Shown here piece after piece: positions 26,292 through 60,937 of a DNA stretch of 64,000 bases. The stretch lies in contig JAUXSK010000006.1 of NCBI GenBank assembly GCA_030679995.1, positions 10,328 through 74,327 of the forward strand. The letters run 5' to 3'. A program made the translations under genes and the position numbers. The notes under the pieces are model-generated. The model was not told where the DNA came from and searched no databases. It saw only the letters and a program-made list of their open reading frames with translations. The stretch's first letter is position 1; every line of letters begins with the position of its first letter. This DNA comes from Candidatus Moraniibacteriota bacterium. GTDB lineage: Bacteria; Patescibacteriota; Minisyncoccia; Moranbacterales; UBA2206.

Positions 26292-27236
26292 ATGGAATTA
26301 TTGAGGACTTTCCGGAACTTGGGTAAAGGCGATGCTGGCTTGGCAGGAGGCAAAGGCGCTTCATTGGGCGAAATGACACAATCCGGCATTCCGGTGCCAC
26401 CCGGTTTTGTGGTTTTGGCCGGGACTTTCGAGAAATTTCTGGAAGAAACTGATTTGGGCGTCGAGGTTGATGCGATTCTGCATACAGTGGATCACAATGC
26501 GATGCATACGGTCGAAGAAGCTTCGGAAAAAATCCAGACTTTGATTAAGAACGCCCAGATGCCAGGAGATATCGCCAAGGAGATAGAAAGGGAATTTAAA
26601 AAACTCGGCGCTGAATTTGTGGCAGTGCGATCGAGTGCGACAGCGGAAGACGGAGCGGAAAACGCCTGGGCAGGACAGTTGGATTCTTATCTCAATACGA
26701 CCGAGAAAGACTTACTAGAAAAAGTCCAACATTGTTGGGCTTCACTTTTTACTCCCAGAGCCATTTTTTATCGGTTTGAAAAAAATCTTCACAAGCAAAA
26801 AATTTCGGTGGCGGTGGTAGTGCAAAAAATGGTGGAGAGCGAATTTTCCGGCATCGCTTTTTCGGTGCATCCGGTGACAGAGGACTACAATCAGCTCATC
26901 ATCGAAGCCGGTTTCGGCTTGGGCGAAGCGATCGTATCCGGACAAATCACCCCAGACAGTTATGTGGTGGAAAAAAATCCGAGGAATATTTTGGATATCA
27001 ACGTTTCTACGCAGGAACGCGGAATTTATCGGGCGAAAAACGGCGGCAACGAGTGGCGGGATATTCCCGAGCCGCAAGCGTCCGCGCAAGTCCTGACGGA
27101 AAAACAAATTTTGGAATTGTCGGAAATAATCCTTGGCATCGAAAAACATTACGGTTTTCCTTGCGATATCGAATGGGCGTTCGAGGGCGGCAAATTCTAC
27201 ATCGTCCAAAGCCGGCCGATTACGACTTTAAATTAA
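26292..27236 (+). CDS. stand-alone PEP-synthase/PPDK N-terminal ATP-grasp nucleotide-binding domain protein (PPDK_N)
   Basis: 'GGKGASLGEM' and 'VAVRSSATAEDGAENAWAGQ' are signature PpsA/PPDK_N motifs. The terminal 'DIEWAFEGGKFYIVQSRPITT' is the final ATP-grasp motif. The protein stops there (314 aa) with no phosphohistidine or TIM-barrel domain. Confidence 0.8.
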   Translation: MELLRTFRNLGKGDAGLAGGKGASLGEMTQSGIPVPPGFVVLAGTFEKFLEETDLGVEVDAILHTVDHNAMHTVEEASEKIQTLIKNAQMPGDIAKEIEREFKKLGAEFVAVRSSATAEDGAENAWAGQLDSYLNTTEKDLLEKVQHCWASLFTPRAIFYRFEKNLHKQKISVAVVVQKMVESEFSGIAFSVHPVTEDYNQLIIEAGFGLGEAIVSGQITPDSYVVEKNPRNILDINVSTQERGIYRAKNGGNEWRDIPEPQASAQVLTEKQILELSEIILGIEKHYGFPCDIEWAFEGGKFYIVQSRPITTLN

Positions 27237-27345: not shown

Positions 27346-28197
27346 TTGTATATGAATATGACTGGAAAAAAACTTCCCTGGAACAAGCAATTGGCAAAAG
27401 ATTGGAAAAATTATCCCGCGCCCGTCAGACCGGGACTGGAAATGGCTATATACGAAAAAATCATCAAAAGGGTTCTTGCAGGCAATAAGAATCCGAGGAT
27501 TTTAATTTTGGGGTCGACGCCGGAATTCCGCGATTTGCTTTTGAAGCATAAAATAACGCCGATTTGTTGCGATGTGAATCCGGAGGTATATAAGGCGTTG
27601 AAGATTTTAATGGAAAGGAATGGAAAAGAATTATTCGTTGAATCTGACTGGCTTGATCTGGACGATGCGCATAGATTCGACTTGATAATGGGCCATAACG
27701 TTATCAATATGATCCCGATAAATAAACAAGGCCTTTTTATAAAAAATATTGCCGACAATTTGAAGCCGGATGGGATATTCGCGACTACCGTAGTAATACG
27801 TCCGGTACGCAAAGACGTAAATCCGGCTGATGGGTTTGAAAGATACAGGAAGCTGCGAATCAAGACGGGCAAAAAAATGCTTTTTATGATATCTTACCCG
27901 GACCTGGTGTTTTCAATAGGGCAGAAAAAAGGATATTATACGCCGTCCGGAATATTATCGAAGTTGCGCGATATGCGTAGAAAACGGATTATTGATGATC
28001 CGGAATTTAAGACGATGCTTGAATTTATTAAGCCGAGCAGCCTGAAAATCAGATTGCCGCTAAGGGACAAGTTGGAAAATACTTTTAATAAATATTATCT
28101 GATTGAAGATGTCAAAAGCATAACCGATAAATATTTCGATCCCAGCTATTGGCCCATTTATATTTTAAGAAAAAATGGATATTCCCAAAAATTATAA
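27346..28197 (+). CDS. class-I SAM-dependent methyltransferase-like protein, LCM/TcmP-like (carboxyl/O-methyltransferase) family; paralog of the 50171-55509 array
   Basis: 'ILILGSTPEFRDLL' aligns with the LCM/TcmP motif I 'vvxLGAGlDTRayRL'. It is followed by 'CDVNPE' (acidic post-I), 'SDWLDL' and 'FDLIMG'. The N-terminal 'W..x..RPG' motif is shared with the six paralogs. Confidence 0.45.
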   Translation: MYMNMTGKKLPWNKQLAKDWKNYPAPVRPGLEMAIYEKIIKRVLAGNKNPRILILGSTPEFRDLLLKHKITPICCDVNPEVYKALKILMERNGKELFVESDWLDLDDAHRFDLIMGHNVINMIPINKQGLFIKNIADNLKPDGIFATTVVIRPVRKDVNPADGFERYRKLRIKTGKKMLFMISYPDLVFSIGQKKGYYTPSGILSKLRDMRRKRIIDDPEFKTMLEFIKPSSLKIRLPLRDKLENTFNKYYLIEDVKSITDKYFDPSYWPIYILRKNGYSQKL

Positions 28198-29695
28198 AGA
28201 AATAATTGAAAAATCTATCCAGGGCGAATGGCACTTGTTGGGCAATCGGAATGCCCCGCCATTTTTGCTTTGGCTTAAGATGCTAGCTTTGAATAGTGAT
28301 GAAATGAGAAGGATATATGGTACGACCGTAACGGGAGCTGTTATCTACAAGGATTCATTTATCAAATTTTATTTTTTGAGCGATACATTTAAAGAAGTTA
28401 TTAAGTCAGCCACTGAGATATTATTTTCTGAGAATAAGGCGAAAGGTCAATTGGATCAAGTATTGATTTTGCAAGATTATGCCAGAAAGAAAGCGGCTTT
28501 TTTTCTGGAGGAAGATTTAAGAAATTTGAGCGACGGGGAATTATGGAAAAAATATGAAGAAGCCGCCGCTTGCTATGTCAGGCCCCTTCTTTACGGATTT
28601 CTGACTTGGTGCGTTCCGGTTTTCACTGATTATGCCAAATCGATATTAAGGAAACACTTTGATAAGATAGTCGGATTCGATGTGGATGAAAAAACCGCTT
28701 TTGGAATATTGATCACTCCGCATGAGAGATCCCCATATTCCGAAAAAAACGAAGCTCTCGATCGATTGGCGATAAAATATAAAAAACAAATTGGAGAAAT
28801 AAATGGAGATATGGAGGATAAGATAAAGGAAGAATGTCCCGAGTTGGATGCTGATATTTTGGAGTTTTTGGCCAAGTATAAATGGATCGGGTATGATTAC
28901 AGCGGTCCAGCCATTGATTATGGCGAAGTTTTGAAAGATATCAAGGAAAGAAGCCTTGGGATAAACATTGGAAAACAACGGAAAATAAGCAGGGATGGCA
29001 TCATTGAAAAGTGCGGCTTCAGCCCTTCCGAGAAAAACGTATTCGATATTTTTTCCCAACTTACTTACGTCAAGGATGCGCGGAACAGCGGGGATGATTT
29101 CATCCATTTTTGTTTGATAGAATATTTTTTCACTGAGGTCGGCAGAAGATTCGGTTTGACCAAGGAAGCGGTTCAGTTTTTATCTCCCGGGGAATTGGAA
29201 AAAATGTTAAAAGAAAATAAAGTTTACAGCGAGGAATATATAAACGAAAAAAAGAGGTGCTATGTCGCTACCACTATCGACAAAGAAGGAATCAAGAAAT
29301 ATTACGCAGGAAATGAGGCTGAGAAATTTCTAAACAAAATAGAAAAAAAGATAGACCATAGTGAAACAAGAGAATTCAGAGGAACCGTGGCTTGTATCGG
29401 AAAAGTTACGGCAAGAGTTAAAATAGTAAATACTTTTGAAGAATTGTATAAAATAAAAGAAGGAGATGTTTTGGTAACGCATATGACAAGCCCCAGATTC
29501 ATGTCTGCGATTAAAAAGGCGGGCGCGATAATCACCAATGAGGGAGGAGTGACTTGCCACGCCGCTATCATCTCCCGCGAATTTAAAATCCCTTGCATCG
29601 TCGGCACTAAAATCGCCACGCAAGTCTTGAAAGATGGGGATTTGGTGGAGGTGGATGCGGATAAGGGGATCGTGAGAATATTGAATAAATCGTGA
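28175..29695 (+). CDS. PEP-utilizing-enzyme phosphohistidine (swivel) domain protein with divergent N-terminal putative substrate-binding domain (rifampin-phosphotransferase/PEP-synthase-like), paralog 1
   Basis: The C-terminal ~100 aa 'GTVACIGKVTARVKIV...[49 protein letters not shown]' is the PEP-utilizers mobile domain with the catalytic His. The N-terminal ~380 aa is helical and unassigned. Confidence 0.75.
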   Translation: MDIPKNYKEIIEKSIQGEWHLLGNRNAPPFLLWLKMLALNSDEMRRIYGTTVTGAVIYKDSFIKFYFLSDTFKEVIKSATEILFSENKAKGQLDQVLILQDYARKKAAFFLEEDLRNLSDGELWKKYEEAAACYVRPLLYGFLTWCVPVFTDYAKSILRKHFDKIVGFDVDEKTAFGILITPHERSPYSEKNEALDRLAIKYKKQIGEINGDMEDKIKEECPELDADILEFLAKYKWIGYDYSGPAIDYGEVLKDIKERSLGINIGKQRKISRDGIIEKCGFSPSEKNVFDIFSQLTYVKDARNSGDDFIHFCLIEYFFTEVGRRFGLTKEAVQFLSPGELEKMLKENKVYSEEYINEKKRCYVATTIDKEGIKKYYAGNEAEKFLNKIEKKIDHSETREFRGTVACIGKVTARVKIVNTFEELYKIKEGDVLVTHMTSPRFMSAIKKAGAIITNEGGVTCHAAIISREFKIPCIVGTKIATQVLKDGDLVEVDADKGIVRILNKS

Positions 29696-30695: not shown

Positions 30696-32195
30696 ATGTC
30701 ATCAGCGGTCATGCATTCGGGGAAATGGAGAATCAAGCCTTCAGGCAAGCTTCCGATTTTCTTGCGTTTTATGATAAACTCTGCTTTTAACAAGGAGGAT
30801 ACTGGCAAAGTCGAAATTAAAACCGTGCTTTGCAACCGTACATTCTTGAACCATATGATGTATTGGGAAGCCTCGGAATATAACAGCTTCGAAAAAGAAG
30901 TGATTGACCATCTCAAGGCTAATGATGGCTGGTTTGAACGATATTGCCAGCGTGAATTGGAAGAATGCGAGAATCTGTATAAAAAAGGATTGGAACTTAA
31001 AAAAATCAATTGGAAAGAAAAAGACAATTCTGAGTTGAAGGAATCCTTGGCTGATATATTGAATAAATATAGGAGTCTGGTCGGCGCATGGTATGCGCAA
31101 TATCCGCTGGATGAATATTTTGAGAACGCGATTGAGAAAAATTTGGCGGAATATATCCCTTCTAGCGATTCTGTATTCAGGAACCTAGTGCTGACATTTA
31201 CCGATCCGGAAAAAGCGACCGAAGTGAGCCAGGAAAGGATAGCTCTATTGGAGATTGCGAAGGATTTTTTTGAAAAAATGGAGGATCTGGATGGATTATC
31301 GGCTGAGGCTAGGAATATTATTGATGATCATTTGGATAAATACGCCTATATAAACAGGGGATTGGCTACTAGCCGGCCCTATTCTTTTGAGGACATAATC
31401 AACCGTTTGAAAGAAATAAAAAAACAGGTGGATGCAGGAGAAAGGCTTGAAGATATGGCTTATAGCGCTTCCGAAGATAAAGTGGAGGCGGATTATAAAA
31501 CGGCACTGGATAAGATAAAACCTAAGCCTGACTTTCTGGAAATAATCAGAAAGGCCAAGCATCATTCATATTTGCGCAATAGGCGCGTAGAGGCCTTTTT
31601 CAACGCTGATTTCGGGGCAAGTTTCCTTTATTCCGAAATCGCTCGAAGGTCGGATTTCAACCCTGATGAAATCATGGAAATCACGGATGAAGAAATGTTC
31701 GGTGCACTGGAAGGGAAATCATTGCCTGATGCGGAAGAAATGGCTCGGAGGCATTCCAATTATGCCATGATCGTCCGTAATTCAAAGACGCAGCTTATTA
31801 CCGACCCGGAAGAAATAAAAAAAATGGAAAAAGATTATTTCGTCGATGTCGTTAAATCCGAGGAACTAAAAGGCAAAGTGGCATGTTCGGGAGGGGTCAT
31901 TCGCGGAAGGGCGAAAATTTGCCTGGATAAAAAGGATATCCCGAAAGTAAACAAAGGCGATATATTGGTCGCCCAATTCACTACCCCGGATTTCGTGGTG
32001 GCGATGGAAAAAGCGGCGGCTATTATAGCCGATCAGGGCGGATTGTCTTCGCATGCGGCGATCGTATCGAGGGAATTAGGCGTTCCTTGCGTGATGGATA
32101 CGAAAAACGGCACGAGGATAATCCATGATAATGATCTGGTGGAAGTGGATGCCAAAACCGGCGTGATAAAAATCATTGAACGGGCTACAAGTTAA
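30696..32195 (+). CDS. PEP-utilizing phosphohistidine-domain protein, paralog 2
   Basis: C-terminus 'GKVACSGGVIRGRAKIC...[49 protein letters not shown]'. N-terminal domain divergent, but shares the 'KY.(W/Y)I' motif with the paralogs. Confidence 0.75.
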   Translation: MSSAVMHSGKWRIKPSGKLPIFLRFMINSAFNKEDTGKVEIKTVLCNRTFLNHMMYWEASEYNSFEKEVIDHLKANDGWFERYCQRELEECENLYKKGLELKKINWKEKDNSELKESLADILNKYRSLVGAWYAQYPLDEYFENAIEKNLAEYIPSSDSVFRNLVLTFTDPEKATEVSQERIALLEIAKDFFEKMEDLDGLSAEARNIIDDHLDKYAYINRGLATSRPYSFEDIINRLKEIKKQVDAGERLEDMAYSASEDKVEADYKTALDKIKPKPDFLEIIRKAKHHSYLRNRRVEAFFNADFGASFLYSEIARRSDFNPDEIMEITDEEMFGALEGKSLPDAEEMARRHSNYAMIVRNSKTQLITDPEEIKKMEKDYFVDVVKSEELKGKVACSGGVIRGRAKICLDKKDIPKVNKGDILVAQFTTPDFVVAMEKAAAIIADQGGLSSHAAIVSRELGVPCVMDTKNGTRIIHDNDLVEVDAKTGVIKIIERATS

Positions 32196-33437: not shown

Positions 33438-34859
33438 ATGAACCGAACAGACTTAGAAGCAGTGTTTAAGAAGGATTGGTATATCCAAGGATTCAACGGC
33501 GTGCCGATTTTTTTGAACTCTTGCGCCGCAAGCATGGTGCCGATGAAAAAATATTTAGGATACGGGTATACCGGTTTCATCTGCATCTATCAGGATGATT
33601 ATTGCGAATATGGATATTTACACAGCGACCTGGCTGATGTTTGGAGGCAGGCAAAAAAGAAAATAGAAGAGAATAAGAATTATTTGGTAAAAATAAAAAA
33701 ACACTACGAAGAAGTTTTCAAAAAGCATCAAGCGATGTTCGATAATACGGGAATTGGTGAAATTGGCCGGATGGATGACGAGGAGCTTTTGGAATATTTC
33801 AAAAAAAGCTTGTCGGCTATGGCTGACTCCGTAGGTATCGCGCATGTCTTGGAGGGAATCGGTATGGAACTTGAAAAAGAATTGAAGGAGAAATTTTTTG
33901 AATTTTTAGAGGACAAGAAGGATTTCAACAAACATTTCGCCGTTATAACGGCTCCGACAAGGATTTCTTTTATAACCAGGGAAGAAAATGATCTTAAAAA
34001 AATCATGCGATTGGACGGAGAGGCGTTTGAAACAGCGCTTGAGATGCATTTAAAAAAATATTTTTGGATCCAAAACAGTTATGTCGGTCCGAAGAAAATC
34101 AGTGTCGAAATGCTTAAAGAAAGAATGGGAAGTATGGGTGTGGAAGCGGGAGGTGTCTCCGGACAGGAGGGTATTAAAAATATCAAATTAAGCCAGGAAT
34201 TGAAAGGGATGGTTGGAATAATCGATTTCTGCACGATTTGGCAGGATGAAAGGAAGGAAAATATATTGAGATCTATCAGTAATTTGGGTTTTGTCATAGA
34301 AGAATTGTCGTTGAGAACGGAAGTGTCCGCCCATACGCTATCATATTTGGGGGTGGATGATGTCATGGGCATGGAAACGATCGGGGAAGTGAAAGATATG
34401 GAAGGCGTATTGGCAGAAAGGATCCGAGGGGTTTTATTTTTGGTGGACGACAAGGGTGAACGCGATTTCACCGGCAATGCTTATTTGGAATATTCAAAAA
34501 AGAAGAAAGGAAGCGAAGCGGAGAAGCAAAATTTCGAAATGGATTTGCATGGCACGACAGCCAACGGCGGAACCGCTATCGGGCATGTGATCGTTTGCAA
34601 GGATATTGAAACCATAGAAAAGGTGAAAGAAGGCGATATTTTGGTCGCCTCTATGACTCGTCCCGAATTCATACCGGCCTTGAGAAAAGCGGCGGCTATC
34701 GTGACGGACGAAGGAGGCATTACTTGCCACGCGGCGATCGTGGCTCGGGAACTTGGCATCCCAGCCGTCATCGGCACGAAAATCGCGACTAAAATTTTGA
34801 AAGACGGCATGTTGGTCGAAGTCAAAGCTAATCATGGGTTGGTTAAAATAATAAAATAA
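33438..34859 (+). CDS. PEP-utilizing phosphohistidine-domain protein, paralog 3
   Basis: C-terminus 'GTTANGGTAIGHVIVC...GDILVASMTRPEFIPALRKAAAIVTDEGGITCHAAIVARELGIPAVIGT'. Confidence 0.75.
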   Translation: MNRTDLEAVFKKDWYIQGFNGVPIFLNSCAASMVPMKKYLGYGYTGFICIYQDDYCEYGYLHSDLADVWRQAKKKIEENKNYLVKIKKHYEEVFKKHQAMFDNTGIGEIGRMDDEELLEYFKKSLSAMADSVGIAHVLEGIGMELEKELKEKFFEFLEDKKDFNKHFAVITAPTRISFITREENDLKKIMRLDGEAFETALEMHLKKYFWIQNSYVGPKKISVEMLKERMGSMGVEAGGVSGQEGIKNIKLSQELKGMVGIIDFCTIWQDERKENILRSISNLGFVIEELSLRTEVSAHTLSYLGVDDVMGMETIGEVKDMEGVLAERIRGVLFLVDDKGERDFTGNAYLEYSKKKKGSEAEKQNFEMDLHGTTANGGTAIGHVIVCKDIETIEKVKEGDILVASMTRPEFIPALRKAAAIVTDEGGITCHAAIVARELGIPAVIGTKIATKILKDGMLVEVKANHGLVKIIK

Positions 34860-34860
34860 T

Positions 34861-36402
34861 ATGGACGCGCAAGAATTGAAAAAATATTTGGCGGAAAATG
34901 AAATCGACGTGCAAAGCGCCCGGGCGGCGTTCGGGGCGGCGGATTGGGTTTTCCGGGCCTATTCGGAATCGGCGCAGATTACCAGAGTCGGTCATAATCA
35001 CGTCCATTGCTATTTCGGTCCCGGAGAGGATGTCTTCTACCAATTGATTTCGCGGGATGATATCAAAAAAGTTTCCAAAAAGTTCTACGAAGATTATTTG
35101 GAAAACCCTGAGAGTATGCGAAACAAAATCCACGCCCAGCAAGAATTGGCTTTGGAAATCGATCGCTTGGGGTTGGAATATTTGGAAAAGTCAGGAAGTG
35201 GAGTTTCAGATGCGGAGTTTGCCAAATATTTTAGAAATATAATCGAGTTGGCTTATGAATGGTGGAAATATGCCGCTATCGGAGAAGACAAAGCGGAGGT
35301 GGTCAATTGGGAAGTCGTGCCTCGGTTCCAAAAACGTCATGGCATCAGTCGCGAAGAAGCGCGTGAAGCGGTGAGTGTGTTGGCGCATCCGGATGAGATG
35401 GCGGTTTTCAATCAGGAACGAAAGGATTTTTTTGAGATATGTTCGGCGGTTAACCGGCAAATCGATAGTTCTGGAAATGATGATTTCACTAAAGCATGGG
35501 AAGATAAAAATATTCAAAGCTTGGTCAACGAATATATCCGGAATTTTTTCTGGATCAAAACGAATCTTTATGAGGCGACGCGCGTAGATGGGTATTCATT
35601 GAAGGATGAAGTTAAAAATGAATTAAAAATGAAAAATGAAGCCGACCTGGAAAATGAACTGGCTAAAATAGAAGATAATTTCTCAAATATCCATGCTAGT
35701 AAAAATGAAATTAAAAAGCGCCATGCTCTAAGTGAGGCTGATTTGATGGATATTGAATTTTCCCAAAAGGCAATTTTGTGGTTTGATCAAAGGAAATCGG
35801 GAATGATGAAGCAATTCTATTACATCTATTCCATGCTGCGGGAAATCTCAGCGCGCAAACGAATGGATTACCATACCTGTACGTTATATTTTATGGAAGA
35901 GTTGTTTGATTTACTGAAAAGGAATGCGCAAGTCAATCCCACAGTTATCGCAGAAAGGGAAGGCGGGATATTCTTGGCTTTTGAACGAGGCAAGCGCAAT
36001 ATTTTTCTAGGCGATGAAGCCAAGGATTTATTCGGATTGGCCAGTAAAGTCGAACGCGCGGATGTTTTAAGGGGCGTGGTAGCTAGCCGGGGCGGCCAAG
36101 AAAAAGTCAGAGGAATCGTCAGTATCATCATCCGTCCGGATAAGAATGATTTTGAGGAAGGGAAAATTTTGGTGACCAGTATGACGCGGATCGAGTTCGT
36201 GCCGCTCATGAAAAAAGCGTTGGCGATCATCACCAATGAAGGCGGATTGGCCTGCCACGCAGCCATCGTTTCCCGGGAGCTCGGTTTGCCGGCGATTATC
36301 AGCACCAAGAATGCCACCCAAGTCTTGCAAGACGGGGATGAGATCGAGATGGATATGAAGACCGGGGAAATCAAGGTTATCGTGGCGATGTCTGCGGCCT
36401 AA
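34861..36402 (+). CDS. PEP-utilizing phosphohistidine-domain protein, paralog 4
   Basis: C-terminus '[49 protein letters not shown]'. Starts 2 nt after paralog 3. Confidence 0.75.
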
Positions 36403-49202: not shown

Positions 49203-49787
49203 TTATTTTCTTAACAATTTATCGATATATTTCGCTAAAACATCCGTTTCGACGTTAGTCCTATCCCCCACCTTGAGCATCCCGAGATTGGTATTGTCCA
49301 AAGTATAACCGACCAATGACACGCTGAACCAATCTTTGCCGGTAGACACGACCGTAAGACTCGTGCCATTTACCGTCACCGATCCCTTGTCCGCGACCAA
49401 GCGCATAAATTTGGCTGGGATTTTTATTTTTATAACTTTTGATTCTTGAACTTTTTTGATTTCCATGATTTTTCCGGTCGTGTCCACGTGGCCTTGGACC
49501 AGATGCCCGTCCAGCATATCATTGAGCTTTAAGCTTTTTTCCAAATTCACCGGGACCTCTTCGGTGAAATTTCCGACAGTGGTCTTTTTGATCGTTTCGG
49601 GCATATATTCCACCACGAAATTATTTTTAAAAATATCCTTGACCGTAGAGCAGATGCCATCGATCGCGATACTCTCCCCTTTCTGAATTTTCCAGCCAGC
49701 CGGGATTTTTACGGATACGAAAAGACTGCCATTTTTTTGAGAGACCTTTTCGATAACGGATAATTTTTTTATGATGCCAGTGAACAT
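49203..49787 (-). CDS. ribE: riboflavin synthase alpha subunit
   Basis: 'MFTGIIKKLSVI...GESIAIDGICSTV' repeated in two homologous half-domains ('GSVTVNGTSLTV'). Confidence 0.9.
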   Translation of the reverse strand: MFTGIIKKLSVIEKVSQKNGSLFVSVKIPAGWKIQKGESIAIDGICSTVKDIFKNNFVVEYMPETIKKTTVGNFTEEVPVNLEKSLKLNDMLDGHLVQGHVDTTGKIMEIKKVQESKVIKIKIPAKFMRLVADKGSVTVNGTSLTVVSTGKDWFSVSLVGYTLDNTNLGMLKVGDRTNVETDVLAKYIDKLLRK

Positions 49788-49798
49788 ATCTTTTGAAA

Positions 49799-50140
49799 TT
49801 AAGGTTTAGCTTTTCTGATTAGGAACAGGTCCTTCAGGACTTGATCAATGAGTTGTTTTTCGCTTTCGAAACGGACCACCTCGCGGATTTTTTGGCCGAC
49901 TTCGACGCCGATTTCTTTCCCGTACAAATCGCCGTCAAAATCCAACAGGTGCGCCTCCAGAACGTCGCGTTTTTCCGGCACGAAAATGGCGGCGACATAT
50001 TCTCCGCCGTCAAAACGGGCTTTGCCGACATAAACGCCGCTTCCGATCGCCGGGTCATCCAAAACAAGATTAGCGGTCGGAAATCCCAATGTCCGCCCTT
50101 TTTGTTTGCCCTTGATAATGACGCCTGAAATTTTACACAT
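49799..50140 (-). CDS. stand-alone riboflavin kinase domain protein (RibF C-terminal-domain type)
   Basis: 'KQKGRTLGFPTANL' is the flavokinase 'GRxLGFPTAN' motif. 113 aa, no FAD-synthetase domain. Confidence 0.7.
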   Translation of the reverse strand: MCKISGVIIKGKQKGRTLGFPTANLVLDDPAIGSGVYVGKARFDGGEYVAAIFVPEKRDVLEAHLLDFDGDLYGKEIGVEVGQKIREVVRFESEKQLIDQVLKDLFLIRKAKP

Positions 50141-50170: not shown

Positions 50171-51028
50171 TTATGCTTTTTTCAATATCGCGGTCCATTT
50201 CAATCTCATTGCGGGATGGGTCTTGTCGCGAAATTCAGAAATCAATGTGAATTTTTTGCTTAGCATATTCTTAAATTCTTCCTCGCTTAACATAGGTTGC
50301 TGATAATCAACGCCGATGGTTAATTTCCCAACAGCTTCCGCGGGAAGCAATCCTTTATCGGCCAGCTCCTTGATTTTCAGTTCTATTTTGTGAAAATCAA
50401 AAAGCCTGTTTTCTTCGTTATAAAATTCTTCGTTATATGCTAACCGGATAATCTGCAATAAAAAATATCTGAAGTCATTGAATTTTCCAGGATTGTTTTT
50501 GTATGAATCCACATATTCCTTGAAGCTTATCACATCATCCCGGTGGACATTTATCGCTCCGAAAAACCACTCTCCTCCCGGTTTCAAAACCCGTGCTATT
50601 TTTTCAAAAAAAGCTTCAAATTCTGAAAATTTAATATTGTCCTGCGCCGAATCACTCATGACAAAGTCAAAAGTACCGTCTTTGATGGGCATATTCAGCC
50701 AGTCTGAAATTACGACCTTTTCCTTTTCATTTTTTAGTGCCATAAGGGACGTCATAGCCCGCACTGAATCAGGATTGATGTCCACAATAGTCGTATTTAT
50801 GCCGTATTTAGCCAATAAATCCCTAAATTCAGGGGTTGATCCTAATATAAGGGCACAAGGCGTCTTATTGTTTTCCAGCTTATTTTTTATTTCTTGCTCA
50901 AAAAAAGCGATTTCACCGACTGATGGCTTTCCGGGCGGCATGAACTTCGCCCAAGCTTTTGCTAACTCTTTCCAATTTTCCCGCATCCTAGTCCTCTGAA
51001 TACTGGCCATAGTGTGACAAATTAACAT
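50171..51028 (-). CDS. LCM/TcmP-like SAM-methyltransferase-like protein, tandem paralog 1 of 6
   Basis: 'ALILGSTPEFRDLLAKYGINTTIVDINPD...SDWLNM...FDFVMSD', and N-terminal 'W..F.PPGKPS'. Confidence 0.45.
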   Translation of the reverse strand: MLICHTMASIQRTRMRENWKELAKAWAKFMPPGKPSVGEIAFFEQEIKNKLENNKTPCALILGSTPEFRDLLAKYGINTTIVDINPDSVRAMTSLMALKNEKEKVVISDWLNMPIKDGTFDFVMSDSAQDNIKFSEFEAFFEKIARVLKPGGEWFFGAINVHRDDVISFKEYVDSYKNNPGKFNDFRYFLLQIIRLAYNEEFYNEENRLFDFHKIELKIKELADKGLLPAEAVGKLTIGVDYQQPMLSEEEFKNMLSKKFTLISEFRDKTHPAMRLKWTAILKKA

Positions 51029-51109
51029 TTATATTTCTGGTTATCTTTATCGGCATCGCTGTCAATCATATGCCATATTTACATTTTTTCATATTATACA
51101 ATATGGGCA

Positions 51110-51982
51110 TTACTTTTTTACCTGACCGAAATAAATTTTATAACATGTCAAGGCCCTATTTGCCGCGCTGTTTCTGATTGATTTGATAATAAAACTTCTG
51201 CTGATGATATCATCAACGACTTCCTTCGGTGGAAATGTAGCCCTGAATCCATGCCAAAAAGTCTTTAGAAAATCAAATTGTTTTTTTGTGATAATTCCAC
51301 CTTTTATGAACTTCTCCAGTTGATCATCGAAGTCTTGAAAATTTTTAAGGTGTTGTTTGCCTTCAAAATCCTTCATCCCGATAATGCATGACCAGTAATA
51401 ATAATTTTTGTCATCCCGGGTGAAAATATTATTTTTGAAAGCGGCTATCATATCATCCACGTCAAGAGTCTCGTTTTTTTCAACCGTAACGACGTTCTTT
51501 ATCAAGTGGCCGTCTTTTTTCAAAAGCCTTGCCTGCTCAGCGAAAAACGCTCCCCACTTTTCAAATGGGATATGGCACACCCCGTGGTCGCAAAGAATGA
51601 CATCGAATGAGTCCGATCTCAGTGGAATTTCAAGCCAATTTGAAACCACTACCTTTTCCTTCCCGTCCGAATATTCCAAGAGCTGATCCATGGCATTAAT
51701 CATGTCTGAGTTTATATCGACGATGGTGACATCAACATCATATTTAGCCAATAAATCCCTAAGCTCCGGTGTCGCACCTAAAATCAACGCCTGGATCTTC
51801 TTCTTGGATTTATTGACTATCTTTTGGATATAATCCTCATATATCTCAATTTCATATCGGGAGGGACGATCAGGTGACATAACCCTGCCCCATTCTTCTG
51901 AAATGCTGGTCCATCCTTTCTTGTTTAATACTGGTTTTTTTGACATATTTTTAACTTTTAGTGATTTCGCTTTTTCCATCAA
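51110..51982 (-). CDS. LCM/TcmP-like SAM-methyltransferase-like protein, tandem paralog 2
   Basis: 'ALILGATPELRDLLAKYDVDVTIVDINSD...SNWLEI...FDVILCD'. Confidence 0.45.
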   Translation of the reverse strand: MMEKAKSLKVKNMSKKPVLNKKGWTSISEEWGRVMSPDRPSRYEIEIYEDYIQKIVNKSKKKIQALILGATPELRDLLAKYDVDVTIVDINSDMINAMDQLLEYSDGKEKVVVSNWLEIPLRSDSFDVILCDHGVCHIPFEKWGAFFAEQARLLKKDGHLIKNVVTVEKNETLDVDDMIAAFKNNIFTRDDKNYYYWSCIIGMKDFEGKQHLKNFQDFDDQLEKFIKGGIITKKQFDFLKTFWHGFRATFPPKEVVDDIISRSFIIKSIRNSAANRALTCYKIYFGQVKK

Positions 51983-51997
51983 TCCCCTTATTATATA

Positions 51998-52855
51998 CTA
52001 TTTTTTGGCTTTACAAAACCAAAAGGGTGAAGTTTCCGGATATAGATAATCATGCGAAATGCTTTCTTCAATAACTTCAAAAAATGGCGCGATAAGCTTC
52101 CTCAATTCCTTTGGGTATGCGGTTTGCCATGTCTTAGACGATGTATCACCCCAAAATGAGAACAGATTATGGATTAATCTTGTTGTTTTAGGCATAATTT
52201 TTCCCGCAACGATAATTTTATTATTTTTCCAAAAAGGCGCGATATTTCTCTTAACTTCATCCAGGGAAATAGTATGATTTTTTGAATCATATGTGTCAGT
52301 CAAAAGATGGAAAAACAACTCCATATGACGCTGTTTGGTATAAGATAATTTCTCATATTGCTCCAATGTTTTTTCAATCGGTTGAATTTTCCAATTCTCA
52401 GGCATGGTCGTGACCCGATGGATATAATAGCCACCCGGTTTCAGGATCCGCTTGATATTCCTGTGGAATTTAACCCATTGATCGCGCGGTACATTTCCCC
52501 AGGTCAGATCGCCCAGGACGATGTCAAAAAAATTGTCTGCCAATGGGTTTTCCGCCCAATCGCCCTTCACCAGGATATCTCTATCGCTTTCCGGAACGAA
52601 TTTATTCATCGTCAAAATCATTTCCAGATTCACATCTATGCAAGTCACTTCCAGCGGAAATTTATGTAGGACGTTCCTGACTTCCGGGGTAGCGCCCAAA
52701 ACCAATGCCCGACCGGACTTCTTTCCCGAAGCCTTTTTTACATACATAGCATATTTTGTACAATCCTCCTCGGATGGCCTTCCGGGTGGAGTATAATACT
52801 TCTCCCAATTCTCAGCTACTTTTTTCCACGGTGCGGCGAATGAATCTTTTTTCAT
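51998..52855 (-). CDS. LCM/TcmP-like SAM-methyltransferase-like protein, tandem paralog 3
   Basis: 'ALVLGATPEVRNVLHKFPLEVTCIDVN...GDWAEN...FDIVLGD'. Confidence 0.45.
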   Translation of the reverse strand: MKKDSFAAPWKKVAENWEKYYTPPGRPSEEDCTKYAMYVKKASGKKSGRALVLGATPEVRNVLHKFPLEVTCIDVNLEMILTMNKFVPESDRDILVKGDWAENPLADNFFDIVLGDLTWGNVPRDQWVKFHRNIKRILKPGGYYIHRVTTMPENWKIQPIEKTLEQYEKLSYTKQRHMELFFHLLTDTYDSKNHTISLDEVKRNIAPFWKNNKIIVAGKIMPKTTRLIHNLFSFWGDTSSKTWQTAYPKELRKLIAPFFEVIEESISHDYLYPETSPFWFCKAKK

Positions 52856-52887
52856 ATTTTATTTCGGTAAATTTACCCGTTAAAAAT

Positions 52888-53745
52888 TTATTTCTTTTTT
52901 AGGACATAATCCCTTCTGAAAGCCATAATCGGATGGGATCTATCGGTGTATATTTCCTTGATTGTATAAAACTGCCTCAGAAAATTATCATTCTCCCTAA
53001 TGTTATCAAAGGCAATTTCAACGTAAGAGCTCATGTCCTCATCTTTCATCCATTGAAGTTTTCCAAAATCTATCTTGTTAATAACACCCTTCCTTATAAG
53101 TTCTTCCAACCCCTTGGTGATTCCTTTGAAATAAAACTCTTTCTTTTTTCGATTATACAGGCCTGGCTCTTGATAGAGGCGATGTAACGACCAAATCCTA
53201 TTCTTAAAATCCTTGAAATAGGCCGGGTCTTTCTTATATTTAGCTATCAAGTCCCCGAATCTCCAAGGATTTCTAATTTGATACACCCAGGCCGCTAAAT
53301 AAAACAACCCTTCTTTTTTAAGCGATCCGTTTATGTTATTGATAAATTTCACCCATGTATTAAGGGCTATGTTGCATAATGGTCCGTCAGAGAAAACCAA
53401 ATCAAAATATTCTTCTGGCAACTTCACGCTCAACCAGTTATCAATTGTTAATTTTTCCTTAGGATTTTTACGCTTCATTAACTTATCCATCGCTTTTTTC
53501 ATCGTAGGATTGACATCAACCACCGTGGTCTCTATTTCATATTTCGCCAGCAGATCCCGTATTTCCGGAGTCGAACCGAATATCAAAGCTTTCGGGCTCT
53601 TTTCTTTTTTGAGAATATCCTTGATCATTTTCTCACAAAAAGCGATATCATTCTTATTTGGCCGCCACGGCGACTCCGTCTTGCCCCACATATCGTAATA
53701 GCCGGCCCAGGCTTGGTTATAAACTTTTGGTTTTTTTGGCGTCAT
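52888..53745 (-). CDS. LCM/TcmP-like SAM-methyltransferase-like protein, tandem paralog 4
   Basis: 'ALIFGSTPEIRDLLAKYEIETTVVDVNP...DNWLSV...FDLVFSD'. Confidence 0.45.
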   Translation of the reverse strand: MTPKKPKVYNQAWAGYYDMWGKTESPWRPNKNDIAFCEKMIKDILKKEKSPKALIFGSTPEIRDLLAKYEIETTVVDVNPTMKKAMDKLMKRKNPKEKLTIDNWLSVKLPEEYFDLVFSDGPLCNIALNTWVKFINNINGSLKKEGLFYLAAWVYQIRNPWRFGDLIAKYKKDPAYFKDFKNRIWSLHRLYQEPGLYNRKKKEFYFKGITKGLEELIRKGVINKIDFGKLQWMKDEDMSSYVEIAFDNIRENDNFLRQFYTIKEIYTDRSHPIMAFRRDYVLKKK

Positions 53746-53750
53746 AAGGG

Positions 53751-54650
53751 TTATTTTTTGCCTAACAAATACATCGGTGACGCTTTCGTGATGATTTTTC
53801 CGTAGTCGTCGGCAAAAAGCGTTTTTTTGATTATGAAATACTCTTCCAGCATCCGTTTATTTTCTTCGAAGGTGTTGAATGTCCAATATTTCGATTTGTA
53901 CGGTGCCCAAGCCTTCATCATCCGTTGGCACATCATCTTGAGCAGGATATCGTCCTCGCTCCGGGCCGGATCCAATTTCTTTCCGAATTTTTCGAGTTCC
54001 GGCCAAAAATACGAAAGCGACGCTTTCTTCTCGTCATTCAATGACCGGCTTGCCCAGATAAGCGTGTTTGCCGCCATATTGGCCGCTTTTTTCATCGAGT
54101 ATTCCTCATCGCGCGCCTGATCCAAGAAAGACTTGAACGCTTGTTTGACACTTCCTATCTTGCATTCGTCGATAAATACGCAATCGCGGGTGATGAATGA
54201 GCCGTCCTCTTTCAAGAGCGATTCCAAATTGGAAAAATAAGCGTGTTTATGCCTGTCCCCGATATTGCCGTTTACGAAATCCCCGATTATGACATCGAAT
54301 TTTTTATCAAACCGCATATCGACCCAGTTCGCGGATACGAATTTTTCCTGGGCGTTTTTAAAGTCGGTAAGCGCCGACATAGCGTCGAACATTTCACGCG
54401 TCATATCTGCGCAGATCACTTTCGCGCCGTGGGTCATGGAAAATCTAAAAAGCACGTCGCGGATTTCCGGCGTGGATCCGAGCAATAGGATATCGGGGTT
54501 TTTCCGGTTTTTCAGGGCCGCCCTAAGCAAAAAATTGTAATTGGCGATATCCCCTCTGCTTGGCCGGCTTGGCTCGGTAAAATTCTCCCAATGCTTGGAA
54601 ATCCTGGCCCATTTTTTCTGATGATTTTTAAATTTTTCCGTGATTTTCAT
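53751..54650 (-). CDS. LCM/TcmP-like SAM-methyltransferase-like protein, tandem paralog 5
   Basis: 'ILLLGSTPEIRDVLFRF...VICADMT...ANWVDM...FDVIIGD'. Start trimmed to the internal ATG at 54650 ('MKITEKFKNHQKKW...'), since the ORF-track start overlaps paralog 6 by 200 nt. Confidence 0.45.
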   Translation of the reverse strand: MKITEKFKNHQKKWARISKHWENFTEPSRPSRGDIANYNFLLRAALKNRKNPDILLLGSTPEIRDVLFRFSMTHGAKVICADMTREMFDAMSALTDFKNAQEKFVSANWVDMRFDKKFDVIIGDFVNGNIGDRHKHAYFSNLESLLKEDGSFITRDCVFIDECKIGSVKQAFKSFLDQARDEEYSMKKAANMAANTLIWASRSLNDEKKASLSYFWPELEKFGKKLDPARSEDDILLKMMCQRMMKAWAPYKSKYWTFNTFEENKRMLEEYFIIKKTLFADDYGKIITKASPMYLLGKK

Positions 54651-54651
54651 C

Positions 54652-55509
54652 CTATTTTTTGATTGATTTGTAAAAAATAAAATTTTTAACAAATGATCCG
54701 GAAGGCATTTTATCGATAATTTTAAAATCTTTGCTGAATATGATGTCCTGTTCATTTTCCGTAACCGCGCGCCACATCTTAGGCGGATTATCCGGAAAGA
54801 GTTTGTTGAATTTCTGATATAGCGCATCGATGAACTTATCCCCGTAAACACCTTTGAATCTCGAGATGTTTATTTTATTGTTGATATTTATTACGATTTT
54901 TGTTTCATCATCATAACTTAGATCCAGCAATAATATTTGAAGTATGGATAAATCTCGTTTGTTGATCGTTCCCTTGGCAGATATCCGTTTAAAAAGCTTA
55001 TCGATCAGAACCTCGACATTTTTATTATCAATATGGACGTACGCTCTTTCGATGAAAACCCCGCTTTTTTTTAGCAATGTAGCCATATGCGCCATCCATA
55101 ATTTCGACTTTTCCCAGGGCATATTGCTGCTGACCGCATCACCCAATATCGCATCGAAATAATTTCCAGCCAACGGGACGGCGTCCCACCCGCTTTTTAT
55201 CCAAATTTCTTTTTCGATATTGCTTTTATGCTCCATCAATTCCGACATCGCTATCATCATTTCAATGTTAATATCGACGATGGTAACTTCAGCATCATAT
55301 TTGTGGGCCAAGTCGCGCATTTCAGGGGTTGATCCCAATACTAAAATTTTTGGCTTTTTTATACCCCCTAGGGAAGTTCTGAGGAGTTTATCATAAATTT
55401 CCAAATCATCCCTTGACGGCCTCACTGGATCGGTTATCCCTTTCCATTTTATCGCTAATTTAGGCCACCAATCCGTATCATTCTTGATGGGATAGTTTTT
55501 GACAGGCAT
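54652..55509 (-). CDS. LCM/TcmP-like SAM-methyltransferase-like protein, tandem paralog 6
   Basis: 'ILVLGSTPEMRDLAHKYDAEVTIVDINIE...SGWDAV...FDAILGD'. Confidence 0.45.
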   Translation of the reverse strand: MPVKNYPIKNDTDWWPKLAIKWKGITDPVRPSRDDLEIYDKLLRTSLGGIKKPKILVLGSTPEMRDLAHKYDAEVTIVDINIEMMIAMSELMEHKSNIEKEIWIKSGWDAVPLAGNYFDAILGDAVSSNMPWEKSKLWMAHMATLLKKSGVFIERAYVHIDNKNVEVLIDKLFKRISAKGTINKRDLSILQILLLDLSYDDETKIVININNKINISRFKGVYGDKFIDALYQKFNKLFPDNPPKMWRAVTENEQDIIFSKDFKIIDKMPSGSFVKNFIFYKSIKK

Positions 55510-55530
55510 ATTTTTTTATTACGGATCAAT

Positions 55531-56979
55531 TTATGTTTCGTATGTTTCCAGGGCTTTTTTGAAAATATCCAAAATTTCCTTGAACTCTTCTTCCGTTTCG
55601 CTGCCGGCGGCTATCCGGATCCTTTCCGGCCAATATTCCCCCAGGCTCAAAACCCAAGTCTTCGGATGTCCGAAACTTCCTCCCAGACCTATCTTGTCAC
55701 CAGCGATCTCTTTCAATGTTTTTACGAATTGGGGGGCATCGGCTATCTTGATATTGAAGAGCGTGACAAGGCCTTCCGGCGCGATTTCTTTGGCTAATTC
55801 GCTCTGGGCATGCTCAGGCAGGTTTGGATGTTCGACCTCGCCCACTTTCCCGCTTCCGCTCAGCATTTTCGCCAACTCAAGGGCGTTTTCAGCATGGCGT
55901 TTCATAATTTCCGGCATAATTCCCATCAAGTCCTTGGGTATCTCTTTTTCCGCGATCGGCTGCAAATAGCTTCCGATCATAGCCCGGAATTTTTTTATTT
56001 CCTTTATTTTCTCCGCGTTATCGGAGTACGCGACGCCCATAGTGATTTTGTCTCGGCCTGCCTGATAGTGCTTTGTCGCGCTTTCCACGACGACCAATTC
56101 GACAGGGCTGCCTTTTACATCTTCCAATGGATTGTACAGGACCGGCGACGGCAAAGTATTGTCGATAATAACGGATAATTTTTCCCTGCTATTTTTTCGG
56201 ACGTATCGCACCGCCTTGGAAATTTCCCTGATCGATTCTTCCCTACCACAACCTGTTTGCCGTTCAAATTCCCGCAAAGCCTTGCGGAAAACGAACGGGT
56301 TTTTGCCCTCTTCGAATTCACTGATTTCTTCGGACAACATTTTCTTTAAATTTCCTAGTTCGGATCCTGCCTTGGAATTAGGGACTTTTTCAGCCGAAGG
56401 GTCTTGCGGACCGCTTGCAGGCGTCACAAGCGGATAATTCTTGATTGAAAAATATTTTTCAATCAATTTTTCCGAAGTGAGATTTTCCCGGTAATCCCGG
56501 TTGGCGCTCTCGGCGATAGACATTAACCGCTTTATGTCGCAAACCTGCATATCCTGGGAATTCGCGACGCTTTCAAGGAAAATCAACCTGGGTTTTTTCG
56601 TTTCTATGACTTCCGCGATTTCCTCCATATTTCCCGGATCCACGGCAATCACCTCGACCCCTCTGTTTTTCATCGTATCCACTATCGCGTTGGATTGTTC
56701 ATACATCTCTTTGGCGCATATGACCACGTCTCCGATTTTCAATCCCTCGGCTTCGATCGCGGTATCGATCGCGGCCATACCGTCATTAAACAAGGCGCAG
56801 TCCGCCGATCCCATCATCTCGGAAAATTCCTTCTCGCGCTCCGCCAGTTTCGAATAGCCATAACGGGCGTAAAAATCGAATTCCTCGCCCTTCGCATACT
56901 TTTCCACTTCGACAGCCTGCTTGTCGAGCGATTTGAAGTCCCTGCTGATAGTCCCCTCGAACACATTTTTTTCCGGCAT
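55531..56979 (-). CDS. Cys/Met-metabolism PLP-dependent enzyme family protein (cystathionine gamma-synthase/beta-lyase/methionine gamma-lyase-like), with insertions
   Basis: 'ALFNDGMAAIDTAI' matches 'aFsSGMAAI'. 'VESATKHYQAG' matches the 'SxTKYlxGH' PLP-Lys motif. 482 aa (about 90 aa longer than typical). Confidence 0.6.
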   Translation of the reverse strand: MPEKNVFEGTISRDFKSLDKQAVEVEKYAKGEEFDFYARYGYSKLAEREKEFSEMMGSADCALFNDGMAAIDTAIEAEGLKIGDVVICAKEMYEQSNAIVDTMKNRGVEVIAVDPGNMEEIAEVIETKKPRLIFLESVANSQDMQVCDIKRLMSIAESANRDYRENLTSEKLIEKYFSIKNYPLVTPASGPQDPSAEKVPNSKAGSELGNLKKMLSEEISEFEEGKNPFVFRKALREFERQTGCGREESIREISKAVRYVRKNSREKLSVIIDNTLPSPVLYNPLEDVKGSPVELVVVESATKHYQAGRDKITMGVAYSDNAEKIKEIKKFRAMIGSYLQPIAEKEIPKDLMGIMPEIMKRHAENALELAKMLSGSGKVGEVEHPNLPEHAQSELAKEIAPEGLVTLFNIKIADAPQFVKTLKEIAGDKIGLGGSFGHPKTWVLSLGEYWPERIRIAAGSETEEEFKEILDIFKKALETYET

Positions 56980-59707: not shown

Positions 59708-60937
59708 TTATAAAATTTTAATTATTCCATTATCCGCGTCTACTTCAACATATTCACCCGTCTTTAATATTTTCGTAGCATCTTTGACTCCAATAATACA
59801 AGGTATTTTAAATTCTCTGGAAACAATAGCGGCATGAGAGGTGATACCACCTGTTTCGGTTATGATTGCACTGGCCTTCCGCATAGCAGGTAAATATTCT
59901 ACTCCCGTATAAGGAACGATCAATATATCTCCACTTGCTATCATTTCTATGGCGCCAGCACTGTCTTGTGCAACTATTGCTCGTCCACTTGCCTTGCCTA
60001 ATGATGCGGTTTGTCCTCTTAATTCTTTAGTTTTTATTGCTGTTCCAATTTCTTTAAAATTACCTTTTTCTAAAAAATGTTTTGCTTCCGAACCTGAAAA
60101 AATATTTAATTTGTTATCTGGATAAAATAGTACTGTTAGAACATGCCTCTCGTCGATGATTTTTTTAATTTCTATTTTTTTATTAAGAGCTTCTTTGATT
60201 TCATTGATTTGCAAATATTCAATATCGTCAACTTCGCACCGCAGTCGATTTGCCAGTGACGCAAATAGATTTAGCAATTTTCGTTTTCGAGAGTCTAGCA
60301 GTTCCGAAACATCATCTTTTATGAAAGTTCCAACGCGCAGGATAGTGCTGAAATTTTTGTCCCGATCTGATAATTTTATTTTATCCTGCAAATCTGGCGA
60401 AGATATTTTTGCAAAACGACTTTCATGGATTGGCTGGGTGTAAAAAATAAAATTAGCGTTTATCTCACCAATATCATTGGAATACTTATGCAAATTAGTC
60501 AGAAAATCAGATCCTATTAAAGAACTAAATAGGTGCAGCAAGTTGCTCATAGCATCTAAAGTTGCTGCTTGTTTACGAACTACTTCCAAATCATCTATTA
60601 TCTCGGCATCGCTTATTTTTTTATATTCCTTCCGTTCCAGCGCAGATAGAGTGTCTCTTAGCTTAATTGAAGAACTTTCATATTGGGCCAGAATTTGATT
60701 TATCCATTTATCATTAGCAATCTTTTTTAATAAATTTTGCTTGAGTATTTCTAAATCATCTATTTTGCCGAATTTTTGTTGCCAGCCATTTTTTATGATG
60801 GACAAAATCCTATATCTGGAACCGCAAAGCTCTTCAAAATTTTGAAAAAACAACTCGTCAGCATAATTAAGCGCCGTCAGCGGCGGAAGCTGGTTGCTAA
60901 AAAGTAATTCGTATTTGCTATTTTGAAATGAAATCAT
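59708..60937 (-). CDS. PEP-utilizing phosphohistidine-domain protein, paralog 5 (unlinked copy)
   Basis: C-terminus 'GQTASLGKASGRAIVAQ...[49 protein letters not shown]'. Divergent N-terminal ~300 aa. Confidence 0.7.
   Translation of the reverse strand: MISFQNSKYELLFSNQLPPLTALNYADELFFQNFEELCGSRYRILSIIKNGWQQKFGKIDDLEILKQNLLKKIANDKWINQILAQYESSSIKLRDTLSALERKEYKKISDAEIIDDLEVVRKQAATLDAMSNLLHLFSSLIGSDFLTNLHKYSNDIGEINANFIFYTQPIHESRFAKISSPDLQDKIKLSDRDKNFSTILRVGTFIKDDVSELLDSRKRKLLNLFASLANRLRCEVDDIEYLQINEIKEALNKKIEIKKIIDERHVLTVLFYPDNKLNIFSGSEAKHFLEKGNFKEIGTAIKTKELRGQTASLGKASGRAIVAQDSAGAIEMIASGDILIVPYTGVEYLPAMRKASAIITETGGITSHAAIVSREFKIPCIIGVKDATKILKTGEYVEVDADNGIIKIL

Follow-up and report, generated by a model that had tools for sequence, protein, structure and literature searches.

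The window considered here is a 64-kb stretch of contig JAUXSK010000006.1 from a Candidatus Moraniibacteriota bacterium, and all positions below refer to it. Its minus strand carries six tandem paralogous genes, headed by a gene for a pyridoxal 5'-phosphate (PLP) enzyme of the Cys/Met-metabolism family, and a seventh paralog lies at 27346 on the plus strand. We number the array paralogs W1 to W6, counting from the 50171 end, and call the copy at 27346 W7. The first gene of the operon (55531..56979, minus strand, 482 residues) matches PF01053 (E=1.5e-39; 136 bits against a cut-off of 27, in two stretches) and contains the GMAAI and SATKHYQAG motifs cited by an earlier, sequence-only reading of the locus, which had placed a PLP enzyme of this family at the head of the array. 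It is followed on the same strand by W6 (54652..55509, 285 residues), W5 (53751..54650, 299 residues), W4 (52888..53745, 285 residues), W3 (51998..52855, 285 residues), W2 (51110..51982, 290 residues, with a TTG start) and W1 (50171..51028, 285 residues). W7 (27346..28197, plus strand, 283 residues) sits between a gene for a PPDK_N ATP-grasp protein and the first of several swivel-domain genes. The six tandem genes and the seventh copy of the sequence-only reading are thereby confirmed as open reading frames (ORFs) at these positions, and all seven are intact.

The genes are closely packed, with 21 nucleotides between the PLP gene and the first copy and then spacers of 1, 5, 32, 15 and 81 nucleotides. 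The W5 frame, called mechanically, reaches a GTG at 54851 (366 residues), implying a 200-nucleotide overlap with the neighbouring gene; the internal ATG at 54650 agrees with the family alignment and was adopted as the start. Promoter-like and terminator-like sites showed no excess over shuffled sequence between 49700 and 57600, and a single transcript for the PLP gene and the array is compatible with this site scan, though not proven by it. The GC content of the array (41-42%) carries no island signature when compared with the range of the window (40-47%). Directly downstream, 30 nucleotides past W1, lie genes for a flavokinase (49799-50140), riboflavin synthase (49203-49787) and lumazine synthase (48734-49201); in another metagenome a 394-residue protein (P0091) has a W4-like copy joined in frame to a flavokinase-like C-terminus. 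W1 is present in the public databases as an entry of 100% identity that starts six codons later (P0001, 279 residues) and is annotated as coming from a metagenome-assembled genome (MAG) of Candidatus Moranbacteria. Public annotations of the family say merely "class I SAM-dependent methyltransferase" (SAM, S-adenosylmethionine) or "hypothetical".

Family signature and predicted fold

All seven copies share a W..W..PxRPS-type N-terminus and an L-x-L-G-[SA]-T-P-E-x-R loop, although in a seven-way alignment the other copies are only 21-34% identical to the first. Sixteen positions are invariant in this alignment (W1 numbering: W19, W26, P32, P35, G63, T65, P66, E67, R69, D83, W110, F120, D121, L148, K149 and G152). 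In the N-terminal motif proposed in the sequence-only reading, the "RPS" element varies between KPS, RPS, RPN (in W4) and RPG. When the loop L-[IV]-[LF]-G-[AS]-T-P-E-x-R-[DN] was written as a degenerate DNA pattern, it picked out six of the seven copies, whereas the expectation from 100 shuffles was 0.00, and among 231 family copies from 91 assemblies the G-[SA]-T-P-E motif occurs in 180.

The same positions stand out when 70 diverse sequences are aligned (P0001 numbering, in which residue numbers are 6 lower than in W1, so that D83 becomes D77 and W110 becomes W104). Conservation reaches 100% for G57, T59 and W104, 99% for R63, 96% for P60, 94% for E61 and 93% for D77, and the most conserved positions overall are W13/W20/P26/P29/S30, the loop L54-L56-G57-T59-P60-E61-R63-D64, D77, W104, D115, D120 and L142-K143-G146. 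Residues 150-279, by contrast, have near-maximal entropy and are almost unconstrained. Because the putative pocket residues are the most conserved and the C-terminal region nearly free to vary, the pattern is that expected of a shared ligand pocket with differing targets, and is unlike that of a decaying pseudo-enzyme.

An AlphaFold model built on the 70-sequence alignment (predicted local distance difference test score, pLDDT, 94.5; predicted template modelling score 0.90) has a seven-stranded alpha/beta fold with the class I strand order. Its secondary-structure elements follow the usual core order, with an insertion of ~100 residues between beta5 and beta6, the place where small-molecule methyltransferases build their substrate cap. 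Profile searches agree with the model. Pfam returned generic class I methyltransferase domains alone (Methyltransf_11, Methyltransf_25, Methyltransf_31 and CMAS), with W1-W4 above the gathering thresholds for Methyltransf_11 (29-46 bits against 21.2, W4 scoring 29.4 and W2 45.2) and Methyltransf_25 (27.9-44 bits against 27); W2 also matched CMAS at 30.6 bits. Weak NCBIfam matches pointed to the fatty-acid O-methyltransferase Mtf2 and to BioC (E between 1e-5 and 6e-4). A profile of the seven copies, searched against the PDB, gave 57 matches at E<=1, including MM_2633 (3dtn, E=1e-8) and PfPMT, the phosphoethanolamine N-methyltransferase of Plasmodium (~1e-6).

The resemblance breaks off at the glycine loop. 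Every Pfam match starts at profile position 10-22, that is, past motif I, and in all seven window copies the canonical GxGxG of motif I is replaced by G-[SA]-T-P-E; the acidic residue two positions ahead of its first glycine is a leucine in the family. In the PDB alignments G-s-T-P-E lies over the G-A-G-T-G of 3dtn, D83 over the aspartate of "GIDIC" in PfPMT, and W110 (W104 in P0001) aligns with the D-I of PfPMT. From general knowledge of the fold, we take the aspartate at the end of beta2 to contact the ribose hydroxyls and the hydrophobic or aromatic residue after beta3 to contact the adenine. On this assignment the adenosine-binding half-site is predicted to be retained, comprising the aspartate at the end of beta2, the aromatic residue after beta3 and the F-D of beta4. 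The earlier suggestion of a methyltransferase-like fold with an altered glycine loop is thus borne out by Pfam, the PDB profile search and the AlphaFold model.

Compared with solved enzymes of the Methyltransf_11/25 type (PH0226, 1ve3; MM_2633, 3dtn; PfPMT, 3uj7/4r6w), the family shares the Rossmann fold, the beta2 aspartate, the beta3 and beta4 motifs and the combination of an N-terminal lid with a beta5-beta6 cap. It differs in its G-[SA]-T-P-E-x-R loop, in a W..W..PxRPS lid of its own, in that only 175-207 of 279 residues superpose, and in being encoded by up to about 19 tandem genes that follow a PLP gene. The phosphoethanolamine methyltransferases are among the closest PDB relatives; those of plants and nematodes have tandem methyltransferase domains in one chain, which parallels family fusions from elsewhere. 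Three such proteins were seen: a single ORF of 1704 residues consisting of six family domains (P0082; locus L122, 1125-6239), in which the loop reads GLAPE, GFNSE, GVDPV, GVTPE, GSTPN and GATPE, and two-domain fusions of 574 and 540 residues (P0083 and P0084). The contig with the six-domain ORF also holds genes for RuBisCO, AMP phosphorylase and an IF-2B-like protein.

Age and distribution of the paralogs

A hidden Markov model (HMM) scan of 1.84 billion cluster representatives (clusters at 50% identity) placed 796 clusters in the family at E<=1e-30 and 1901 at E<=1e-10. The DNA pattern, scanned against one genome per species, found at least 119 stretches, 117 of them with a true family member, and the locus counts below rest on these 117 listed loci. 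Judged by record titles among the matches listed, the family belongs mainly to Patescibacteria of many classes and to DPANN archaea, with a few singletons in Clostridia, Christensenellaceae, Desulfosporosinus, Terriglobia, Anaerolineae and Acidimicrobiales. A family defined by the W..RPS and G-x-T-P-E motifs, which the sequence-only reading had proposed to look for in other Patescibacteria, is accordingly widespread there and in DPANN archaea. Copy number ranges from one (57 assemblies) to at least 19 per assembly. Several large-array MAG records (L006, L033, L057, L062, L073, L074, L089, L114 and others) are titled "uncultured Gammaproteobacteria" or "Methanosarcinales"; these titles are probably wrong, because the gene order (S41 peptidase, family, swivel, PLP and family genes) matches that of Patescibacteria and DPANN loci.

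The sequence-only reading had seen in the array a six-fold expansion suggestive of diversifying selection on substrate range; a recent expansion of that kind is not supported. For every window paralog the closest relatives lie in other genomes, and the first copy from its own genome ranks only 15th to 73rd. Orthologs of W3 in other metagenomes range from 88% down to 48% identity (P0002, P0011 and others), a W2 ortholog (L056) is 92% identical, and a W7 ortholog in the same gene context (L053) is 87% identical; W5 shares 58% identity with the third family gene after the PLP gene of another locus (L077), and the best relatives of W6 in other genomes reach 39-40%. Each array paralog also corresponds to its own slot in a larger array of 17-19 copies found elsewhere: W5 to slot 1, W1 to slot 6, W4 to slot 10, W6 to slot 14 (of 17), W3 to slot 15 and W2 to slot 16. 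Within that array the median identity is 32%. Given the closer relatives elsewhere and the distinct slots, the duplications are ancient, and the six genes appear to be a retained subset of an old repertoire of orthogroups common to other genomes. Single-linkage clustering at 38% identity gave no usable orthogroups, since it joined most copies into one chain. In one 12-gene array (L001, 15110-15956) a copy is split into ORFs of 170 and 109 residues; this is likely a decaying copy, suggesting that arrays lose members.

The conserved gene neighbourhood

Clustering all ORFs of the loci, with 8-kb blocks cut arbitrarily, brought out three recurrent partner classes: PLP enzymes of the Cys/Met family, swivel-His-domain proteins of ~480-500 residues, and alpha/beta hydrolases of three subfamilies. 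At least one partner is present in 58 of the 117 loci. PLP genes occur in 24, being adjacent to a family gene in 19 and adjacent on the same strand in the same number; the figures are 22, 18 and 18 for the swivel-domain proteins, and 22, 22 and 15 for the hydrolases. The link between PLP gene and array that was first drawn from the window is therefore a conserved one. GCA_028715115.1 has 12 family genes behind a Cys/Met PLP gene for 478 residues, and another metagenome has at least 17 behind an ortholog of 482 residues. One PLP enzyme with one to about 19 tandem copies thus forms a recurrent operon across Patescibacteria and DPANN archaea. Sampled from the PLP side, a family member lay directly adjacent in two of three orthologs. 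Since some PLP orthologs lack a nearby family member, and many single copies pair with a hydrolase alone, the link is frequent and not obligatory.

The PLP enzyme is itself distinctive. Its subfamily comprised 48 word-index matches of 271-482 residues, mostly 440-482. The Schiff-base lysine of its SATK motif aligns with the SATK of methionine gamma-lyase (MGL), and K303, D273, N274, Y93 and R455 are invariant in 38 orthologs, so that by role the Schiff-base lysine, the aspartate of D-N-T, the ring-stacking tyrosine and the carboxylate-binding arginine are all retained. An insert of ~100 residues (residues ~149-263), which includes "GNNPFVFR", is conserved in the 38 aligned orthologs and appears in the AlphaFold model (pLDDT 87.8) as a predicted helical sub-domain with one disordered loop. 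The best superpositions are with methionine gamma-lyases (target-normalised TM-score ~0.8), and the model also matches a promiscuous gamma-synthase, TM1270, cystathionine gamma-lyase and gamma-synthase (CGL and CGS) and Fub7 (0.7-0.8). None of the NCBIfam equivalogs (MGL, CGS, CGL, cystathionine beta-lyase, and O-acetyl- and O-succinylhomoserine sulfhydrylases) reaches its cut-off, the best being NF006347 with 120.9 bits against 477 and the others scoring 66-96 bits against cut-offs of 366-675. With MGL, CGL/CGS, Fub7, CndF-like gamma-synthases and TM1270 the enzyme shares PF01053, the S-x-T-K lysine, D-N-T and the carboxylate-binding arginine; these solved enzymes are only 15-24% identical to it and lack its helical insert. 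By its modelled fold and its predicted-intact catalytic residues, the PLP gene encodes a gamma-lyase/gamma-synthase-like enzyme, probably acting on amino acids as others of the gamma family do.

The second partner class leads back to W7. Upstream of W7 lies the gene for the stand-alone PPDK_N ATP-grasp (nucleotide-binding) protein (26292..27236, plus strand; PF01326, 330.6 bits), and downstream follow four swivel paralogs on the plus strand, at 28175..29695 (C-terminal PEP-utilizers His domain at residues 427-498; PF00391, 89.9 bits), 30696..32195 (85.5 bits), 33438..34859 (90 bits) and 34861..36402 (81.9 bits); a fifth, of 409 residues, is found on the minus strand at 59708..60937 (88.8 bits). 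Between the swivel genes are a HAD hydrolase gene (32202-32792) and two ORFs without any family match (29730-30677 and 32782-33420). The swivel-protein profile matches the Listeria rifampin phosphotransferase (RPH) at RPH residues 622-878, and the N-terminal ~250 residues of the swivel proteins have no detectable relative. Because the match extends beyond the His domain, we regard the swivel genes as RPH-type modules whose ATP-grasp is encoded separately. RPH-type dikinases unite the PPDK_N ATP-grasp, a substrate-binding domain and the C-terminal swivel His domain in one polypeptide, and this is not the arrangement here: PPDK_N stands alone, and the swivel domain forms the C-terminus of five separate proteins. 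RPH shares with this set a PPDK_N domain and a protein ending in a swivel His domain, but here a single ATP-grasp protein, encoded apart, would serve no fewer than five swivel paralogs. Phenylphosphate synthase has a likewise split arrangement. Swivel genes and the unit of PLP gene and array are ~20 kb apart in the window and contiguous in four other loci (L047, L074, L077 and L084), which upholds the earlier proposal that the seventh copy ties the array to the phosphotransferase cluster.

As to the third class, NCBIfam offered no MetX or BioH identity for the hydrolases, with no match for the three types from Candidate Phyla Radiation (CPR) bacteria, DPANN archaea and Clostridia and a weak generic one for the Desulfosporosinus type. 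The small recurrent neighbour ORFs (c10, c39, c47 and c51) were uninformative, one being DUF5674. Outside CPR bacteria and DPANN archaea, the neighbours of the family gene in Desulfosporosinus (L027, 637-8000) are genes for an alpha/beta hydrolase, a radical-SAM protein and two pairs of aconitase type, and on another contig (L123, 4172-6511; P0163) a family domain is fused to an enolase-superfamily MR_MLE domain beside two pairs of aconitase large and small subunits. The aconitase and MR_MLE settings of these two unrelated contigs hint at carboxylic-acid substrates. On a Staskawiczbacteria contig (L126, 7116-8240) a membrane dipeptidase (Peptidase_M19) lies directly upstream of two family genes and a PLP gene, possibly hinting at amino-acid or dipeptide substrates. 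On a Buchananbacteria-type contig (L127, 19976-21340), ~9 kb from a PLP gene that has a family gene next to it, a reverse transcriptase gene (RVT_1) comes after a bAvd gene, and this pair bears the sequence signature of a diversity-generating retroelement.

Possible functions of the array and their significance

We propose that the paralogs are a battery of substrate-specialised small-molecule class I SAM-dependent methyltransferases working with the PLP enzyme, a proposal that we hold with about even confidence. Each paralog would bind SAM, the glutamate and arginine of the loop gripping the amino-acid end of the cofactor, and would methylate its own small acceptor, chosen by its hypervariable beta5-beta6 cap. 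The acceptors would probably be amino-acid-type or thiol/carboxyl-type metabolites made or consumed by the PLP enzyme, which would provide the common step: it could generate the acceptor, for example a thiol released by C-S/gamma cleavage or an amino acid substituted at the gamma position, and might otherwise remove homocysteine or consume the products. The paralogs have their nearest relatives outside their own genome, and those of the array each correspond to a slot of their own, which argues for distinct retained functions. Together with the dikinase modules and the hydrolases, the family genes may form an island for metabolite tailoring, salvage or detoxification, in which small hydroxylated compounds might be the targets of the RPH-like modules and the adjacent hydrolases would suit reversible carboxyl methylation. 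Several observations weigh against this proposal. W5, W6 and W7 fall under the Pfam gathering thresholds (21.7, 22.7 and 18.9-20.7 bits, respectively), the 22.7 bits of W6 being its sole Pfam match, to Methyltransf_25, and two of the three glycines of motif I are gone. Within 10 kb of the third sampled PLP ortholog there was no family gene, many copies of the family stand alone in their locus with a hydrolase as sole partner, and no gene of the SAM cycle (metK, sahH, mtnN or luxS) was among the recurrent neighbours.

The loop is the feature on which alternative readings turn. MT1-fold enzymes that use SAM for purposes other than methyl transfer include AzeJ and VioH (SAM cyclases), MccD (an aminocarboxypropyl transferase) and CmoA (carboxy-SAM synthase). 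It is conceivable, although in our view rather unlikely, that the altered loop likewise re-orients the methionine moiety, so that the 3-amino-3-carboxypropyl group is transferred, or SAM cleaved or cyclised, with release of methylthioadenosine; the resulting gamma-substituted 2-aminobutyrates would be the natural substrate class of the adjacent gamma-type PLP enzyme. The change is limited to the methionine-end part of motif I, with the adenosine contacts kept, and the PLP partner structurally resembles MGL, Fub7 and the promiscuous gamma-synthase, enzymes acting at the C-gamma of amino acids. MccD and CmoA are precedents, as is AzeJ, which has GxxxG in place of GxGxG (PMC11794875). We saw no specific sequence relationship to AzeJ/VioH, MccD or CmoA, the AzeJ signature motifs (PMC11794875) not having been looked for. 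Nothing beyond the loop and the partner points specifically to such chemistry, however, many family members have no PLP gene nearby, and the nearest sequence relatives are ordinary methyltransferases. The loss of canonical motif I would also suit non-catalytic, MetW-like adaptors or sensors, forming hetero-oligomers with one another and with partner enzymes and tuning these enzymes through SAM or another adenosyl ligand. The very different neighbours (PLP enzyme, RPH-like modules, three hydrolase subfamilies and the MR_MLE fusion), the two- and six-domain fusions and the gaps of 1-32 nucleotides, suggestive of coupled and equimolar synthesis, would all accord with such subunits. We nevertheless consider them improbable: a pocket that is most conserved combined with a cap that is most variable is the pattern of enzymes with a shared cofactor and differing substrates, and none of the seven copies matches MetW (PF07021/TIGR02081) at E<=1.

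Taken together with a recent six-fold amplification under diversifying selection on substrate range, the reading that started this analysis, of carboxyl/O-methyltransferases of the leucine carboxyl methyltransferase (LCM)/TcmP type, now seems very improbable. By eye, G-S-T-P-E-F-R lines up ungapped with the LCM pattern as quoted there, G-A-G-l-D-T-R, and this local likeness (glycine, an acid at +4 and arginine at +6; G-x-x-x-acid-x-R) remains. Reversible carboxyl methylation is known from pairs such as BioC/BioH and LCMT/PME-1, and in keeping with this the 22 loci with an adjacent alpha/beta hydrolase would offer potential methylesterases, and the weak matches to Mtf2 and BioC point the same way. 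Yet the HMM of the LCM family (PF04072) matches none of the seven copies at E<=1, on which ground membership of LCM/TcmP is rejected, no LCMT-like chain occurs among the 57 PDB profile matches or the fold neighbours, and the paralogs are old and common to other genomes, the array resembling what remains of a larger ancestral set.

Two further candidates were rejected. The group II MmtN methionine S-methyltransferases of CPR bacteria and Woesearchaeota (PMC9135737) have a class I fold, occur in the same kinds of organisms and act in methionine/sulfonium metabolism; they are single-copy and retain GxGxG (PMC9135737), which the arrayed family lacks, and this rules out an MmtN identity. MmtN chains were likewise missing from the PDB profile and fold searches. 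The plant enzyme MMT joins a class I methyltransferase domain to a PLP-fold domain. PADLOC lent no support to a role in anti-phage defence: it matched only mad2, through a generic methyltransferase domain, and did not recognise the PLP and dikinase genes.

A full-text search of the literature found no description of the family, of its arrays, or of its association with PLP, dikinase and hydrolase genes. Within the class I fold, the family is set apart by its loop, its copy number in very small genomes and a neighbourhood conserved across two domains of life. The loop poses an enzymological question, since G-x-T-P-E-x-R in place of GxGxG could mean a different mode of SAM binding, changed chemistry or another ligand, and all parts of the system are small soluble proteins and hence directly amenable to work in vitro. 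We think it unlikely, but by no means negligible, that the family represents a new functional class of the MT1 fold, either carrying out non-methyl SAM or adenosyl-sulfonium transfer that feeds a gamma-type PLP enzyme, or building hetero-oligomeric machines from many paralogs; if true, this class would define an undescribed pathway of Patescibacteria and DPANN archaea that in some genomes takes up ~15 kb, with at least 17 genes of ~0.85 kb each. The genomes of these organisms are stripped down, but in some of them 12 to at least 17 genes in tandem belong to this single family. A partnership common to both domains points to a selectively important small-molecule pathway, which may serve the salvage, detoxification or tailoring of host-derived metabolites.

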